Below are positions 21,796-46,003 of a DNA stretch of 64,000 nt, piece after piece. A program made the translations under genes and the position numbers. Numbering within the stretch: position 1 is the first letter of the stretch; every line of letters starts with the position of its first letter. Below the pieces are notes generated by a model. The model did not search any database, was not told the DNA's origin, and saw only the letters and a list, made by a program, of their open reading frames with translations. Source of the DNA: Candidatus Aphodosoma sp. (GTDB taxonomy: Bacteria > Bacteroidota > Bacteroidia > Bacteroidales > Paludibacteraceae); contig JAZRYS010000168.1 of NCBI GenBank assembly GCA_045600865.1, positions 1,556-65,555 on the forward strand, read 5' to 3'.

Positions 21796-21853
21796 TTGAT
21801 TCAAATCGGTCATTGGAATCATTTCATGACTTTGTCAATGCCGTTACACAAAG

Positions 21854-25554: not shown

Positions 25555-26097
25555 TTATTTACCATCTGGTTTAATCTTAATAATCTTTGCGCTTACCGTA
25601 GTTCTATATATTATTTCACGGTTGCTTTTTCCCTGTTCTACATTCGTTGAAATCACAGGTTCTATAACGCCATCACCACCTGCAATCTTAGCCGCATTAA
25701 TAAGTCTGTAGATGGCCAAACGACGAACAATCCAATGTGGATATGGAGGTATATTGAATAGCTCTTCATCATAATCATTGCTCAAATACCCTAGACAAAC
25801 AAGTCCCTTAATAGAATTAGGTTCCCACTCTCCCGTTTTATTATTTTTATTCCAAGTTAGTGAGAACTCTCCATCTGGATCTTCCACCTTAACCGAAAAA
25901 TCAGAAAAGTGTGCTGTCAATGAAGCCTCAGCTGTAACCGTATTCACTATAATGTAATCTGTACGCTGCAAATCCAAATCATTGAAAGATATTGATGCAA
26001 CGGTGTTAGTTGCCTGAGGTATTACTGACAATGCACTACGACAAGAAGTCATCGTTATTGCAAGAATTGCAGCAAGAAATAGATTCTTTTTATTCAT
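25555..26097 (-). CDS. Small lipoprotein, function unknown
   Basis: The start is moved to the ATG at 26097, giving MNKKNLFLAAILAITMTSC (lipobox). It is the first gene of the three-gene operon. Confidence 0.6.
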   Translation of the reverse strand: MNKKNLFLAAILAITMTSCRSALSVIPQATNTVASISFNDLDLQRTDYIIVNTVTAEASLTAHFSDFSVKVEDPDGEFSLTWNKNNKTGEWEPNSIKGLVCLGYLSNDYDEELFNIPPYPHWIVRRLAIYRLINAAKIAGGDGVIEPVISTNVEQGKSNREIIYRTTVSAKIIKIKPDGK

Positions 26098-26492
26098 ATC
26101 AGTGTGTTTTAATATGTTGCCTACTCTAAAAAGGATTTTCGGCATACTCCATGTTTTTCTCAGTCCGTTGTTTGACGAGGCACAAAAAGTGGACTAACCT
26201 TTTCTATTCACAATCATAGACATCACCCCATTATGACAGTTTAGCAATTTGAAGATTGTGCAAAACAATGAATAACATCATGTTCTTAGTTGTGCATTTA
26301 GTTACATTTTATCCCATAGGCTTAATTTAATTAATTTTACACAGTTGAATCTATTTACTATGAGACCTAAAACCAATTACAATCAGGTAAAAGCTGAACA
26401 TACCTTATTGCAATCAATCAAAATACGTTTTCTGAGTTTTTGCAAAAGATGGCAAAATCTTTGTCTTGAAAAAAACATCTGATGTCTTTTTT

Positions 26493-26569
26493 GCAAATAA
26501 AAAACGCAGTCCCCAGTTGTCATTCCCTACTTGAAGGTTCTGGTAAACCCATACGACAAGAATGACAAC
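26493..26569 (-). repeat. Copy B of the dispersed element: 10-bp inverted repeat enclosing the conserved 28-nt core, followed by a T-run on the minus strand
   Basis: Arms are 26516-26525 (gttgtcattc) and 26560-26569 (gaatgacaac). The core at 26523-26550 matches 463-490 at 25/28 in reverse complement. The minus strand continues ...ctggggactgcgttttttatttgc. Confidence 0.6.
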
Positions 26570-26700
26570 GTAGCCTGCGCCGATATGTATAACCGCACTC
26601 TTAAGAGCGCATGAATATACATACACCGCAGACATTCATTGATCCCTCTTGCTTCAGGTCGTATAAAAATTTACCAGATTTTCAAGTACCGAAACAAGCG
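26510..26700. repeat. ~190-bp imperfect palindrome centred on CTCTTAAGAG (26598-26607)
   Basis: Reading outward from the centre, the two arms share AAGAGYGC, TATACATA, CGCAG, GTCGTAT, TTTACCAGA and TTCAAGTA in the same order. The right arm is a decayed inverted copy of element B. Confidence 0.6.
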
Positions 26701-26773
26701 TCAATAAACGCCTAAAATATGTCTGCTCGCCCACCCCCTAATGAGAGACCCCACAGGCGCGGGTTTGCGGTTG

Positions 26774-26781
26774 CAAAGGTA
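26774..26781 (-). promoter_or_regulatory. Orphan promoter P1: minus-strand TACCTTTG -7 box with TTTG at -33 spacing
   Basis: Plus-strand CAAAGGTA at 26774-26781. The minus-strand TTTG is at 26802-26805, giving a 20-nt spacer. The 20-mer 26772-26791 is 19/20 identical to 27080-27099. No credible ORF lies downstream for ~670 nt. Confidence 0.5.
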
Positions 26782-26838
26782 GGAATAATTTCTGAACTGG
26801 GCAAATGTTTGGGAAACTTTTTTCAATGATTGTTTATC

Positions 26839-26893
26839 CCAAATCGGTCATTGGGATTTGTCAAGCTCCCTTCATGGCTAATGACCGATTTGG
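26839..26893. repeat. 14-bp perfect inverted repeat (CCAAATCGGTCATT / AATGACCGATTTGG) with a 27-nt spacer
   Basis: Read directly. The left arm plus flank (CAAATCGGTCATTGGGAT, 26840-26857) recurs at 21802-21819 at 17/18. Confidence 0.8.
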
Positions 26894-26926
26894 TTTTAAT
26901 TGATAACTCTCAATTGAAAGGAGGTT

Positions 26927-27017
26927 GCGCCTTCGCTCGGGGTTCGCTCGGTATTCGCTTTTTGACCCCGAGAAGCGAATACCGAGCGAACTCGCAGCGA
27001 ACCTGCAGCGAACCTAA
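26927..27017. repeat. Iteron-like array: three forward TTCGCT and four reverse AGCGAA hexamers phased at exactly 11 bp
   Basis: TTCGCT lies at 26932, 26943 and 26954. AGCGAA lies at 26974, 26985, 26996 and 27007. The inner units form a perfect 19-bp inverted repeat (26942-26960 / 26973-26991). Confidence 0.85.
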
Positions 27018-27081
27018 TGTCTTGACTGTTCAGACCTCTGGAGTGTGAGCCATGAAAACATCCTTCCGCTGAATTGCACTG

Positions 27082-27089
27082 CAAAGGTA
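27082..27089 (-). promoter_or_regulatory. Orphan promoter P2: minus-strand TACCTTTG -7 box, duplicate of P1
   Basis: Plus-strand CAAAGGTA. The surrounding 20-mer is 19/20 identical to P1. It fires toward the iteron-like array. Confidence 0.45.
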
Positions 27090-27195
27090 TGAATAATTTT
27101 TGGTATGGCAATGGGTTGTCAGGACCTTGGCGGAATTAAAACTTGTATTGACTTGTGCCTGTGAGCGTTACAGCGGCTTTGAGATTGAAAATGGG

Positions 27196-27225
27196 GTGAA
27201 AAATGGAGGCAAAATTTGCCTCCAT
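27196..27225 (-). terminator. Putative intrinsic terminator ending the long minus-strand gene string
   Basis: ATGGAGGCAAAATTTGCCTCCAT (27203-27225) forms a stem of 8 bp or more. It is followed on the minus strand by TTTTCACCCCATTTTC, 49 nt after the stop at 27274. Confidence 0.6.
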
Positions 27226-27273
27226 CGTTGTCATCCGTTTATAACCTTATAGTAATAAATGGCTTTTGATGTC

Positions 27274-28731
27274 TTATTTTACCTTCAGGTCGTAGCCGTA
27301 TATCGTGTTGCTGCTTGGTGCAGTCCAGAAATGGCGCAACACACCATCGATGATAACGTCTTTACTGTCACTATCACCGTCATAGAGAATTGGCACGTCA
27401 ATCTTGATGTCTTTCTCGACCTGTGCCTCGCCCTTTTCAATGTCAATCCATGCCTTATAGAGGTTAACATTCGAACCAGAAAGAGGTGTATTGACGAAGG
27501 TCATCAGTATGCGTGAATCGTCAGTTGTAACGAGTTTCGTCATATTTGACATAATGCTGCCTTTCGGAACCATTACCAACTGCTTGCCATCACCTTCGAA
27601 GTCCTTGTTTCCTGTCTGGTCAACAGTCTGCAGTGCTGTATATGCCTCAACACCGTTGGCATCAGACCATACGCATACGAGTTTGTGGCTGTTCTTGTCT
27701 AATGTGGCATACACATTCAAATATCCTGTACTGCAGCCAGTAGGGAGTATGTCAACTTCGCCAAAGCCGTTTGTCTTGCCATTTGCATCAAAATGATAGG
27801 CATAAGCTTTCAGAAGGGTGGATTCTCCGACTTTGCAGACAACGTATGCACCCCCGAGACCATCTTCGACAATCTTTGGACGGAAACCTAAAGAATAGAT
27901 CCTGTTGCTCATCAACAGTTCCTGACTCTGAATCGTTCCATCAGCCGAAATTTTAATGACATCAACATAGCCATCGATTTTTGCTTCGGTTGAGCCACCT
28001 CCGACTGGGTCGGCATACTGTACAATCATCAGCAAATCATTGTTTGAATTCACGAACATCTGTGGATTGCGGATATGACTCTTTGCTCCAGACGAGCCGT
28101 TGGCTGGGTCGAACAAGATAGGGTCTGTCACCATATTGCCCTCGCTATTGACACGAGCTACTGCCATCATTGGACCTGCACAAGCGGCAGCAACCCACGC
28201 ACCTCCGTTATTATCGGCAGCTACAAAGCCTTCGCATGGTGTAATGTTGGCATTTTCACCGAAATCGTAAAACAGTTTGCCATTCTCGCCCCATGCGAAA
28301 GAGCCGTCTGGACGTATCATCGTAATGTATGGGTGCATTATGTCACCGCTATCGCCCTTGGCACTATAGACATCTATCACATTGCCCTCGGTGGTAATGT
28401 CGAATACTGTTGTGCTTACCCAACTTATTGCTTCGCGTTTTGTCATCTGTATCCAATTGCTCCATTTTGCCTTGCCGTTGGCATCAACACACTGCATAAA
28501 TGGTACATAACAATCTTTGCTGACTTCAGCCCAGCTTTCGATGTAGGTACATTTGCTTTTGACATCCGATTTGTACAGCATTGCATCCATAACAAAATTG
28601 TCCAAGACAACGTAAATCTTGTTCTCTTCGACAGGCTTCGGTTCTACAGGATTATCTTTTTTGCATCCAACCAGACCTAAGACAAGGATTGATACTGATG
28701 TCAGCAAGTATCCAAGATTAATTTTTTTCAT
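27274..28731 (-). CDS. Lipoprotein, function unknown (possibly beta-propeller-like)
   Basis: Lipobox LVGC. 485 aa, with repeated G/D/N-rich beta-strand-like segments. I recognise no catalytic motif. Confidence 0.6.
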   Translation of the reverse strand: MKKINLGYLLTSVSILVLGLVGCKKDNPVEPKPVEENKIYVVLDNFVMDAMLYKSDVKSKCTYIESWAEVSKDCYVPFMQCVDANGKAKWSNWIQMTKREAISWVSTTVFDITTEGNVIDVYSAKGDSGDIMHPYITMIRPDGSFAWGENGKLFYDFGENANITPCEGFVAADNNGGAWVAAACAGPMMAVARVNSEGNMVTDPILFDPANGSSGAKSHIRNPQMFVNSNNDLLMIVQYADPVGGGSTEAKIDGYVDVIKISADGTIQSQELLMSNRIYSLGFRPKIVEDGLGGAYVVCKVGESTLLKAYAYHFDANGKTNGFGEVDILPTGCSTGYLNVYATLDKNSHKLVCVWSDANGVEAYTALQTVDQTGNKDFEGDGKQLVMVPKGSIMSNMTKLVTTDDSRILMTFVNTPLSGSNVNLYKAWIDIEKGEAQVEKDIKIDVPILYDGDSDSKDVIIDGVLRHFWTAPSSNTIYGYDLKVK

Positions 28732-28787: not shown

Positions 28788-29561
28788 TCATTGACGAAAT
28801 CTGTAAGTAATAGTGCCAGACACTGGCGAATTTCCCGAAGTGAACGTATTCTTCTTTGCAGCTTCCATGGCAGCTTCAATCACCTTTGCTGACTTGATGG
28901 TGGTTCCAGAACCCTTGATGGCATCAACCACCTTTCCACTTGCATCTATCCGTATAGCAATGACGACAACACCTTGCTCGCTGCCTGAATATGAAGGTTC
29001 TGCCAACTGACCTTTCAGGGTACGCCCGTTCACAGACCACAATCCATCCACTTTTTCGTTATCCACAAATGCATCTCCGGCTGACGGATTATTGACTTCG
29101 AGTGTGCCAAAGTCTCTCATTGCGTCAAAAATCTTGTTGCACAACGGTGAATCATTGCATTTGATGCTCCATTCCTCAATCAGGAAAGGATATTTCTTGC
29201 CTGTCGTGCCGTTCTCTTCAGTCATCTCAATACCCTCTTCGCATACCATCTCTATAGTGCTGTTTTTTCTGGCGATAGTTGTCTTTGACAGGTCTATCCT
29301 CACTGTATAGGTATTGTATTCACCCATGTCTATGTCAGCTACAGCACTATTATGAACGACATAGACAACAGTCAGCATAACGCCATCAAGCGTCACTTTC
29401 TCAACACTCTTTGGTATTCTGTCGTCATGCATCTTGCATTCCTTATAATACGGCAGTCTGACTGATTCTGTGTAAGTGGTCAGCAGGCGTTGCAGTTCTG
29501 CCTGGGCAGACATTCCTGCCGCACATGCGAACAGGGTGATGATAAACAATATTCTTTTCAT
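28788..29561 (-). CDS. Secreted protein with a TonB C-terminal-like domain
   Basis: The start is moved to the ATG at 29561, giving MKRILFIITLFACAAGMSAQ. The C-terminus QGVVVIAIRIDASGKVVDAIKGSGTTIKSAKVIEAAMEAAKKNTF resembles the TonB_C fold pattern. The ATG overlaps the upstream stop (ATGA). Confidence 0.55.
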   Translation of the reverse strand: MKRILFIITLFACAAGMSAQAELQRLLTTYTESVRLPYYKECKMHDDRIPKSVEKVTLDGVMLTVVYVVHNSAVADIDMGEYNTYTVRIDLSKTTIARKNSTIEMVCEEGIEMTEENGTTGKKYPFLIEEWSIKCNDSPLCNKIFDAMRDFGTLEVNNPSAGDAFVDNEKVDGLWSVNGRTLKGQLAEPSYSGSEQGVVVIAIRIDASGKVVDAIKGSGTTIKSAKVIEAAMEAAKKNTFTSGNSPVSGTITYRFRQ

Positions 29562-29905
29562 AGATACTTCACTCCATGTTTGTTCAACCATCTTTCCTCG
29601 CATTTGCGACGTTGGCCCTCGTTATGGGCTCTTTTTCGCGTCGCTTTGTACTGGCGTTCGCCAACCTCTTTGGCATAGCAAAGCACACCTTTATCGTTCT
29701 CAACGACAATCCAGCCGTCCAGAGTTATGTTGCAGTGCCAATGCTCGTCGCCTATTAGACGTATCATAACAGTATCGCCTTTGTCGGGCTGAACCTTTGC
29801 GATTGGATATGGGGCTGCGGGAACTCTCTGTGGGCCACGTCTCTCCTGGCCGAATGCAAAGACACTGGCAGCCAGCAAGGCTATCAATACAATACTTTTT
29901 CTCAT
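29558..29905 (-). CDS. Stand-alone paralogue of the N-terminal module of the adjacent M6-type proteases
   Basis: It has a signal peptide and DTVMIRLIGDEHWHCNITLDGWIVVENDKGVLCY. This aligns with STVRVRLAGDEFFSYMVTEDGRIV, STIEAELVGDEYHHCYKSLDGFIV and TTVEAELVGDEFWHGMVTREGMLL in the three proteases. There is no protease domain. Confidence 0.6.
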   Translation of the reverse strand: MRKSIVLIALLAASVFAFGQERRGPQRVPAAPYPIAKVQPDKGDTVMIRLIGDEHWHCNITLDGWIVVENDKGVLCYAKEVGERQYKATRKRAHNEGQRRKCEERWLNKHGVKYL

Positions 29906-45966: not shown

Positions 45967-46003
45967 GCGCACAAAGTTACAAAAAAAATTCGTACCTTTG
46001 CAC
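45967..46003. promoter_or_regulatory. Back-to-back divergent -7 boxes (minus TAACTTTG at 45972-45979, plus TACCTTTG at 45993-46000)
   Basis: GCGCACAAAGTTACAAAAAAAATTCGTACCTTTGCAC. This is the same 35-37-nt cassette as at 49249-49283. Confidence 0.6.

Follow-up and report, generated by a model that had tools for sequence, protein, structure and literature searches.

A candidate transcription-attenuating leader RNA behind one of two twin promoter-like sites in Candidatus Aphodosoma, with relatives across Bacteroidota

Introduction

Gene control at the RNA level is far less charted in Bacteroidota than in Proteobacteria or Firmicutes. The described systems closest to the element considered here are leaders that alternate between a terminator and an antiterminator fold, including riboswitch platforms, the trp and pyr attenuators, T-box and PyrR leaders, and the BglG/LicT ribonucleic antiterminator (RAT) systems. 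This article concerns a comparable locus in a 64,000-nucleotide (nt) stretch of the genome of Candidatus Aphodosoma sp. (assembly GCA_045600865.1, contig JAZRYS010000168.1), hereafter the window, in which two near-identical promoter-like sites, P1 and P2, lie on the minus strand of an intergenic gap and P1 is followed by a structured element of about 270 nt. Like the leaders named above, the family to which this element belongs is promoter-proximal, follows a four-strand logic (1:2 and 3:4 against 2:3), places an intrinsic terminator a few tens of nucleotides before the start codon, and displays covariation for both folds. It differs from them in having no leader peptide, no aptamer or leader match in Rfam 15, heterogeneous downstream genes (the cargo), and up to about 21 copies per genome.

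Specialised NusG paralogues that act with leaders, such as Bacteroides UpxY and Bacillus LoaP, and processive antitermination RNAs, such as HK022 put and Bacillus EAR, are alike in arrangement, with a structured leader and an internal terminator placed before long surface, polysaccharide or accessory operons, whereas the competing-terminator covariation observed here points to a switch rather than to modification of the polymerase. The Correia elements of Neisseria are promoter-carrying miniature inverted-repeat transposable elements (MITEs). Elements of this type resemble the present family in that they are repeats scattered over the genome, form hairpins and provide genes with upstream promoters; the leader differs in its strong compensatory variation, its fixed orientation and distance to the following open reading frame (ORF), and the absence of terminal inverted repeats and target duplications from the alignments of its copies. 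The DUF805b motif (RF02914) occupies the same intergenic region and follows leader copies in some relatives, yet it is a separate 35-nt hairpin by the start codon, outside the leader and missing at most of the family loci scanned. The FopS and GibS small RNAs of Bacteroides thetaiotaomicron are likewise multicopy, with a canonical sigma-ABfr promoter, an intrinsic terminator and a link to outer-membrane or surface genes (PMC11697453). FopS RNAs are about 65-70 nt long, act in trans via a 5' seed and occur in Bacteroidaceae only (PMC11697453), whereas the present RNA is 170-275 nt long, lies in cis before its gene and is found in several phyla; identity with FopS/GibS was rejected on grounds of size and mode of action.

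If the reading developed below is correct, the phylum would possess a widespread portable attenuator that belongs to no Rfam 15 family and for which searches with conserved sequence words and with keywords found no published description. It would control giant adhesin-like proteins, cargo of the type IX secretion system (T9SS), lipoproteins and defence genes, and would travel with phages and probable conjugative elements. Such an orphan switch would have an effector that can be searched for directly, could serve as a ready-made regulatory part for engineering gut Bacteroidales, and would account in annotation for many long 'empty' intergenic regions with strong promoters.

A probable structured leader RNA downstream of P1

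P1 is quite probably the promoter of a cis-acting leader RNA of about 270 nt that functions as a transcription attenuator, with a lipoprotein operon as its cargo in the window. This reading is adopted because the family exhibits two covarying folds and because a co-directional ORF follows the terminal T-run at short distance in nearly all copies. The covariance model used throughout, R1, was constructed from 23 close copies (alignment A1) and represents only the long form found in Paludibacteraceae. Minus-strand positions 26499-26773 match it in full length (model positions 1-275), with the promoter upstream and the T-run downstream, and the element ends in a hairpin followed by T6. Both the start at P1 and the roughly 270-nt transcript are predictions from the sequence. 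The original prediction had P1 transcribing a structured non-coding element up to a T-run, which agrees with these results, as the element is a conserved structured RNA. The palindrome of about 190 bp that it had described is real; it corresponds to a rod-shaped RNA stem rather than to a pair of inverted element copies.

In addition to the segments of the compact form described below, the window copy has a further hairpin at its 5' end and a long apical one between the strands AT5 and S (Table 1). The terminator hairpin alone (S:T3 plus x:x') has a predicted energy of -34.2 kcal/mol and is followed directly by T6, as in an intrinsic terminator; a simple terminator scanner overlooks it, its loop exceeding 8 nt. 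The predicted energies of the rod and of the terminator state, folded on slightly different stretches, are -104.3 and -105.7 kcal/mol, respectively, and the window copy may accordingly be modelled as bistable, with two states of almost equal energy. The window RNA lacks an AUG over its first ~130 nt, which leaves no place there for a leader peptide of the trp type. Protein coding was also considered and rejected: stops or frameshifts interrupt a 45-codon frame within the RNA in roughly half of 22 close copies, and distant members have no ATG at that place.

Table 1. Features of the gap between the 485-aa gene and the lipoprotein operon, in minus-strand order (positions in the window)
Feature	Positions	Strand	Basis or remark
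Perfect 11-bp hairpin, then TTTTCACCCC	27203-27225	-	inverted-repeat search
P2 module, conserved upstream part CCAAGGTCCTGACAACCCATTGCCA, including ATTG 27109-27112	27106-27130	-	also in G000 C136 (two copies), C129 and G009:C40
P2 20-mer with -7 box TACCTTTG (27082-27089)	27080-27099	-	pattern scans
GC-rich palindrome of 11-nt-periodic TTCGCT/AGCGAA units; arms 29 nt, 90% complementary	26926-27013	.	repeat search
Small palindrome CAATTGAGAGTTATCAATT after the array	26898-26916	.	also kept after the C129 array
Hairpin with perfect 14-bp stem (26839-26852 / 26880-26893) and 27-nt loop; then TTTTAATTG on the plus strand	26839-26893	.	repeat like a repetitive extragenic palindrome (REP)
P1 promoter module: A-rich upstream part, TTTG 26802-26805, -7 box TACCTTTG 26774-26781	26772-26823	-	sequence and pattern scans
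Structured leader RNA	26499-26769	-	model R1, 307.8 bits
Leader, 5' hairpin	26729-26764	-	
Leader, conserved GACAUA	26717-26726	-	
Leader, small hairpin	26696-26713	-	
Leader, strand s1	26689-26698	-	
Leader, helix strand a	26681-26690	-	
Leader, helix strand b	26670-26678	-	
Leader, helix strand c	26658-26664	-	
Leader, strand s2	26647-26657	-	
Leader, AT5	26627-26633	-	
Leader, apical hairpin	26582-26626	-	
Leader, shared segment S	26573-26579	-	
Leader, s3/x	26557-26569	-	
Leader, c'	26551-26557	-	
Leader, b'	26539-26547	-	
Leader, a'	26526-26535	-	
Leader, s4/x'	26516-26525	-	
Leader, T3	26505-26509	-	
Leader, T-run	26499-26504	-	
Weak A-run/T-run hairpin AAAAAAGACATCAGATGTTTTTTT just past the leader	26469-26492	-	sequence; kept in the C3 paralogue
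Weak promoter-like box TTGCCATCTTTTGCA	26441-26463	-	repeat D1, 70% identical to P1; TAnnTTTG not fitted
Promoter-like box TTATTCATTGTTTTGCA (TTGTTTTG, one mismatch to TAnnTTTG)	26259-26275	-	repeat D3
DUF805b RNA motif (Rfam RF02914)	26118-26152	-	40.8 bits against a gathering score of 35.6; 21 nt ahead of the start codon
First gene of the lipoprotein operon, 180 aa, MNKKNLF...MTSC lipobox	25555-26097	-	ORF listing, translation

Two competing folds

The compact form of the family consists, from its 5' end, of a small hairpin, s1 CTTATTCTC, a variable strand a, an invariant strand b UCUGGUAAAUUU, a variable strand c, s2 GAGAATAAG, AT5 (GTTCACG), a loop, the segment S (CGTGRRC), s3 (GCTTATT), the partner strands c', b' and a', s4 (AATAAGC), T3 GTTCACGC and the T-run. 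Several of these strands have alternative partners: S can pair with AT5 or T3, s3 with s2 or s4, and s2 with s1 or s3. In the rod fold, a, b, c, s2 and AT5 would pair with S, s3, c', b' and a', so that S and s3 are sequestered and the polymerase reads on; in the terminator fold, s1 would pair with s2 while S and s3 join T3 and s4 in a long hairpin directly before the T-run, where transcription would stop. The two folds are mutually exclusive: in the terminator hairpin the rod's 3' strand falls within the loop, and its two ends would have to meet. Read-through would reach the downstream gene or genes, which in the window are a three-gene lipoprotein operon at unusually long distance.

The base pairs of both folds are visible in the pattern of sequence change. 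For the 23 close copies (A1) the consensus is rod-like, with compensatory changes in 24 pairs, and across 44 model-aligned members 92.6% of the alignment cells of the rod are paired and double changes occur in 71 of 77 pairs, compared with 38-50% of cells paired when the 3' partners are shifted by one to three columns. The switch pairings were counted on a MAFFT alignment that was not fitted to any structure (A3, 50 diverse members with a mean identity of 48%). On this alignment RNAalifold recovered conserved helices only and missed the variable stems; the named helices were hence counted directly. Paired cells and pairs with double changes amount to 94.8% and 5/7 for S:T3, 95.1% and 4/7 for AT5:S, 81% and 9/9 for s1:s2, 74% and 6/6 for s3:s4, and 87% and 5/6 for s2:s3, compared with roughly 33-66% of cells paired in slid controls (about 40-56% for the last three pairings), and all five pairings exceed 500 column shuffles in both percentage paired and covariation score. 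When 27 distinct S variants are compared, S/T3 and AT5/S duplexes gain about 2.3-2.5 kcal/mol of predicted stability from having the cognate rather than a non-cognate partner, a difference reached by none of 5000 permutations. The segment S therefore has two alternative partners, both supported by covariation, as is expected of an attenuator. A closing helix proposed by RNAalifold (5' GCAG / 3' CUGC) was the weakest helix, with 78% of cells paired and failure in distant members, and was replaced by S:T3.

Helix b (UCUGGUAAAUUU / RGGUUUACCAGA) is invariant across phyla save for one swap of U:A to A:U, amid helices a and c that vary freely, and its sequence constancy suggests that it is the likeliest site at which a host factor or ligand would be recognised. 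Control by the early-forming s1:s2 hairpin, acting kinetically, is also plausible.

Distribution of the leader family

The segment at about 26823-26499, which comprises the P1 module and some 270 nt up to T6, is a dispersed repeat, with copies of 75-87% identity in the same genome and in relatives of the genus as detected by BLAST, and a hidden Markov model search found about 21 full or partial leader copies in the 2.66-Mb assembly. In the alignments of these copies, similarity begins about 50 nt 5' of the -7 box and ends right after the T-run. A P1-type promoter precedes every full-length copy of the family, in which the T-run is conserved; in distant copies only promoter-like features are kept 5' of the -7 box, and the transcribed part is conserved. 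R1 matches 75 of the 151 genomes sampled from the same family, representing 25 of its 33 sampled genera, and single genomes contain up to at least 12 scored copies. Elsewhere in the order, 22 genomes belonging to other families have matches. The named carriers of the close form are metagenome-assembled genomes (MAGs) of Paludibacteraceae from horse faeces, namely Ca. Colousia faecequi, Ca. Minthenecus merdequi and Ca. Aphodosoma.

A wider scan of species-representative genomes used two invariant core motifs, AATCTGGWAAATTT and TTWCCAGARCCT, spaced 55-85 nt apart, and yielded at least 120 named loci, thus selected by both motifs, in Bacteroidota, Ignavibacteria and Fibrobacter; in addition, 30 IMG/VR viral contigs were matched. 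The matches listed include, among Bacteroidales, Bacteroides finegoldii, Alistipes, Rikenella, Parabacteroides, Butyricimonas and Prevotellaceae, and, among other Bacteroidota, Flavobacterium, Chryseobacterium, Tenacibaculum, Pedobacter, Dyadobacter, Emticicia, Runella and Chitinophagaceae. The compact forms, about 170-200 nt long, have the entire architecture in common beyond the two motifs, and on rescoring with R1 they reach E values of 1e-18 to 5e-7 even though the model contains the long form only. A phylum-level search with covariance models returned almost nothing outside the order, a shortfall attributed to strict filters and to the long-form model because the pattern scan and the R1 rescoring find many members. 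An identical compact leader, together with its flanks and its cargo ORF (MLDGTQAKYG...), is present in records from Alistipes, Bacteroides ndongoniae and Butyricimonas (L156, L146 and L126), which suggests horizontal transfer on a recently moved mobile element.

Comparison of positions 26499-27099 with Rfam 15 gave no match at the gathering score or at E values up to 10, and none was obtained on the element in 29 related loci. When the gap as a whole was scanned, as the original prediction had envisaged, DUF805b was the sole match. In one same-family genome, a SAM-II riboswitch (L064:3089-3148, 52.8 bits) lies a few hundred nucleotides from a leader copy.

Genomic context and mode of action

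A co-directional ORF of 70 aa or more begins within 450 nt of the T-run in 111 of the 117 copies examined. The median distance is 57 nt (interquartile range 45-82), and some distances, at 28-35 nt, are too short for another promoter. Approximately half of the cargo products are signal-peptide-like by a crude rule, against 24% of the long ORFs in this genome. By Pfam, the cargos fall into many families: BspA-type leucine-rich repeat proteins, a 3716-aa fn3 protein, a 4156-aa InlB-B-repeat protein, a beta-propeller protein, an FGE-sulfatase lipoprotein, a Por_Secre_tail (T9SS) protein, a kinase, a WYL protein, an OmpA protein, DNA methylases of the C5, N6, MmeI and EcoRI types, a LytTR regulator and a DUF4417 protein. 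Of these, the leucine-rich repeat, fn3 and T9SS proteins are counted as surface proteins. Several cargos are proteins of about 75 aa that appear helix-turn-helix (HTH)-like by eye. In rumen Bacteroidales MAGs, seven compact leaders (L097, L134, L142, L143, L157, L162 and L165) have proteins of about 71-89 aa located 1-55 nt downstream, with the common motif IHIGxxIKxxLxEQGRxxxWLA and likewise HTH-like by eye; the one tested had no Pfam match.

Several points weigh against an attenuator acting in cis. The shuffle statistics are inflated by kinship among the sequences. Among 49 compact members, folding predictions favour the rod in 45 and the terminator state in the other 4, with a mean advantage of about 10 kcal/mol for the rod, so that termination would, according to the folding model, need a kinetic trap formed by s1:s2 or a factor that disfavours the rod. 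The cargo is heterogeneous and lacks the coherent metabolic or transport context of a metabolite riboswitch, a pattern that fits a portable leader before accessory genes rather than a riboswitch of the classical kind. The window copy is itself atypical, lying 401 nt from the ATG at 26097, with a weak A/T-flanked hairpin, two weak promoter-like boxes and DUF805b in between, and its RNA could be a free-ending transcript. Finally, a paralogue on C3 has no co-directional gene within about 1 kb.

These last two copies are also what a stand-alone, multicopy small RNA acting in trans would lead one to expect. On that explanation, the terminator always ends the transcript and the neighbouring genes use their own promoters; promoter-like boxes do lie between the window copy and its ORF, every copy has its own promoter and terminator, and Bacteroides does contain multicopy small RNA families with canonical promoters (FopS, PMC11697453). 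The explanation is nevertheless unlikely, given that the median spacing to the co-directional ORF leaves no room for such promoters, that the terminator is not constitutive, since covariation is seen between S and either of two partners, and that no conserved single-stranded seed is evident. The original prediction had favoured two discrete non-coding transcripts and had offered a very long structured leader of the lipoprotein operon as the alternative. Its first proposal is half supported: the P1 product is a conserved structured RNA, but the family behaves as a 5' leader and the P2 product is not conserved as RNA. The alternative comes closer, with competing folds and a family set directly before genes.

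An element of the put, EAR or LoaP/UpxY type, which would ensure full transcription of long or foreign genes by processive antitermination or by shielding from Rho, with no signal-gated switch, is about equally improbable. Very long cargo genes (3716, 4156 and >1822 aa) and horizontally acquired ones, carriage on phage and probable conjugative DNA, an invariant helix b that suggests a universal host partner, and a rod that is the predicted ground state in most members all suit such an element, but put- or EAR-type action needs no covarying terminator in competition with the rod, and many cargos are short (70-200 aa). That the family is a selfish, MITE-like palindromic mobile element with an incidental promoter and no function at the RNA level can hardly be maintained, despite its high copy number and close similarity within the genus, its company of other repeats (array and REP-like hairpin) and its presence on mobile DNA, because similarity stops exactly at the promoter and the T-run, stems change by compensation while loops stay fixed, the architecture persists at the low mean identity of A3 across phyla, and copies keep a constant orientation and spacing relative to the ORF that follows.

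For the attenuator reading, a broader version is conceivable, although we consider it doubtful: an orphan promoter-plus-attenuator cassette spread across the superphylum (Bacteroidota, Ignavibacteria and Fibrobacter) would respond to one universal host signal and gate surface genes together with horizontally acquired ones, such as restriction-modification methylases and genes of phages and conjugative elements. That signal could be a second messenger or the state of the elongation complex; a conserved RNA-binding protein docking on helix b would be a third candidate.

The twin promoter-like sites

The degenerate 20-mer AAATTATTC[C/A]TACCTTTGCA, scanned over the whole window, matches the minus strand without mismatch only at P1 (AAATTATTCCTACCTTTGCA, 26772-26791) and P2 (AAATTATTCATACCTTTGCA), where 0.01 matches would be expected by chance. 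The next-best site, at 45983-46002 on the plus strand, has three mismatches, and none lies within two. The twin sites share 19 of 20 positions and are 308 bp apart, in agreement with the original prediction, as is their appearance as promoters of the Bacteroidetes type. Both contain a -7 box that fits the TAnnTTTG consensus of sigma-ABfr; a -33 element was taken to be TTTG about 19-21 nt 5' of that box, which P1 possesses with a 20-nt spacer, and P2 has a -33-like ATTG with a 19-nt spacer, a variant kept in all P2-type modules. The box TACCTTTG is found at six sites in the window, where 1.68 would be expected and 1 of 100 shuffles gave as many, one of them 33 nt ahead of the tRNA cluster, where it had also been placed previously. 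A sigma-70 promoter scan, whose consensus is irrelevant to this phylum, gave output at chance level.

A P1-type module of about 60 nt (AAAAAACTTTCCGAAACATTTGCCCAAGTCAGAAATTATnnCTACCTTTGCA) has some 25 occurrences in the genome (C136, C58, C115, C3, C16, C54, C261 and others). Being commoner than the leader, it has the character of a reused strong-promoter cassette. At G000 C136:~1700-1640 on the minus strand, a P1-type promoter is followed by a tandem repeat of about 32-nt units (AAAATCTCGATTTGGTGCAAAAATCATGCTGC...) in place of the leader.

The P2 product and neighbouring repeats

The transcription start of P2 is predicted near 27075-27078. Downstream of it, the iteron-like array and the 14-bp inverted repeat noted previously are both present (Table 1). 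In BLAST comparisons with relatives, what follows P2 does not recur as a unit; only the P2 module and the palindromic array do. A decayed leader copy was considered as the P2 product and rejected, the alignment score after the promoter being 37 against 39.4 +/- 4.8 for shuffles. On the minus strand of the window, neither the array nor the 14-bp-stem hairpin is followed by a T-run, so a P2 transcript would run into the P1 leader or end otherwise. P2 may thus be the second promoter of a composite that, with no terminator in between, feeds the same leader or makes an unstable upstream transcript.

This composite is recurrent and consists of the P2 module (AAGGGTCGGACAAYCCATTGCCA...TACCTTTGCAGTGCAATT), an 11-nt-periodic palindrome (hexamers TTCGCT, GTCCGYT, CTCCGC) and a P1-type module. 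It is found in the window, at G000 C136:1939-1700 and in G009:C40, in divergent form on C129, and with a decayed P2 box on C179. Related arrays, in which the hexamers differ and the palindrome is preserved, lie at C129:17531-17611, C179:6000-6102, C179:~29480-29590, C211:603-684 and in G009:C40 (L003). Two of them (C179:6000 and C211:603) stand alone between convergent genes and in this respect behave like REP-type or terminator-like palindromes. The 14-bp-stem hairpin has partial copies at C271:1189 and C111:21856, and the relative G007 contains many copies of it. One arm of its stem recurs at 21802-21819, just after an AlbA_2-like gene, and the stretch of about 5 kb between the two arm copies could be an inserted segment.

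Layout of the gap and the downstream operon

P1 and P2 are situated in a 1.13-kb gap between two minus-strand genes, one at 27274-28731 and the lipoprotein gene starting at 26097. Positions 26146-27273 contain short ORFs only, and the next real start codon after the T-run is that at 26097; ORF listing and sequence concur with the earlier statement that no protein gene directly follows the promoters. The three-gene lipoprotein operon is the presumed cargo of the leader in the window. Its 180-aa first product matched no Pfam family, and the arrangement of leader plus operon is kept in another species (G009:C7), with a leader-ORF gap of 265 nt.

The weak hairpin just past the leader is a possible second or bidirectional terminator. 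According to BLAST, the DUF805b stretch occurs in several genomes of the genus after leader copies or near other genes, and in G006:C92 it lies 54 nt past the leader. At the upstream end of the gap, the 11-bp hairpin is the likely terminator of the 485-aa gene that precedes it, and this hairpin (ATGGAGGCAAA/TTTGCCTCCAT) recurs almost unchanged at other gene ends (C58, C80, C111 and C259).

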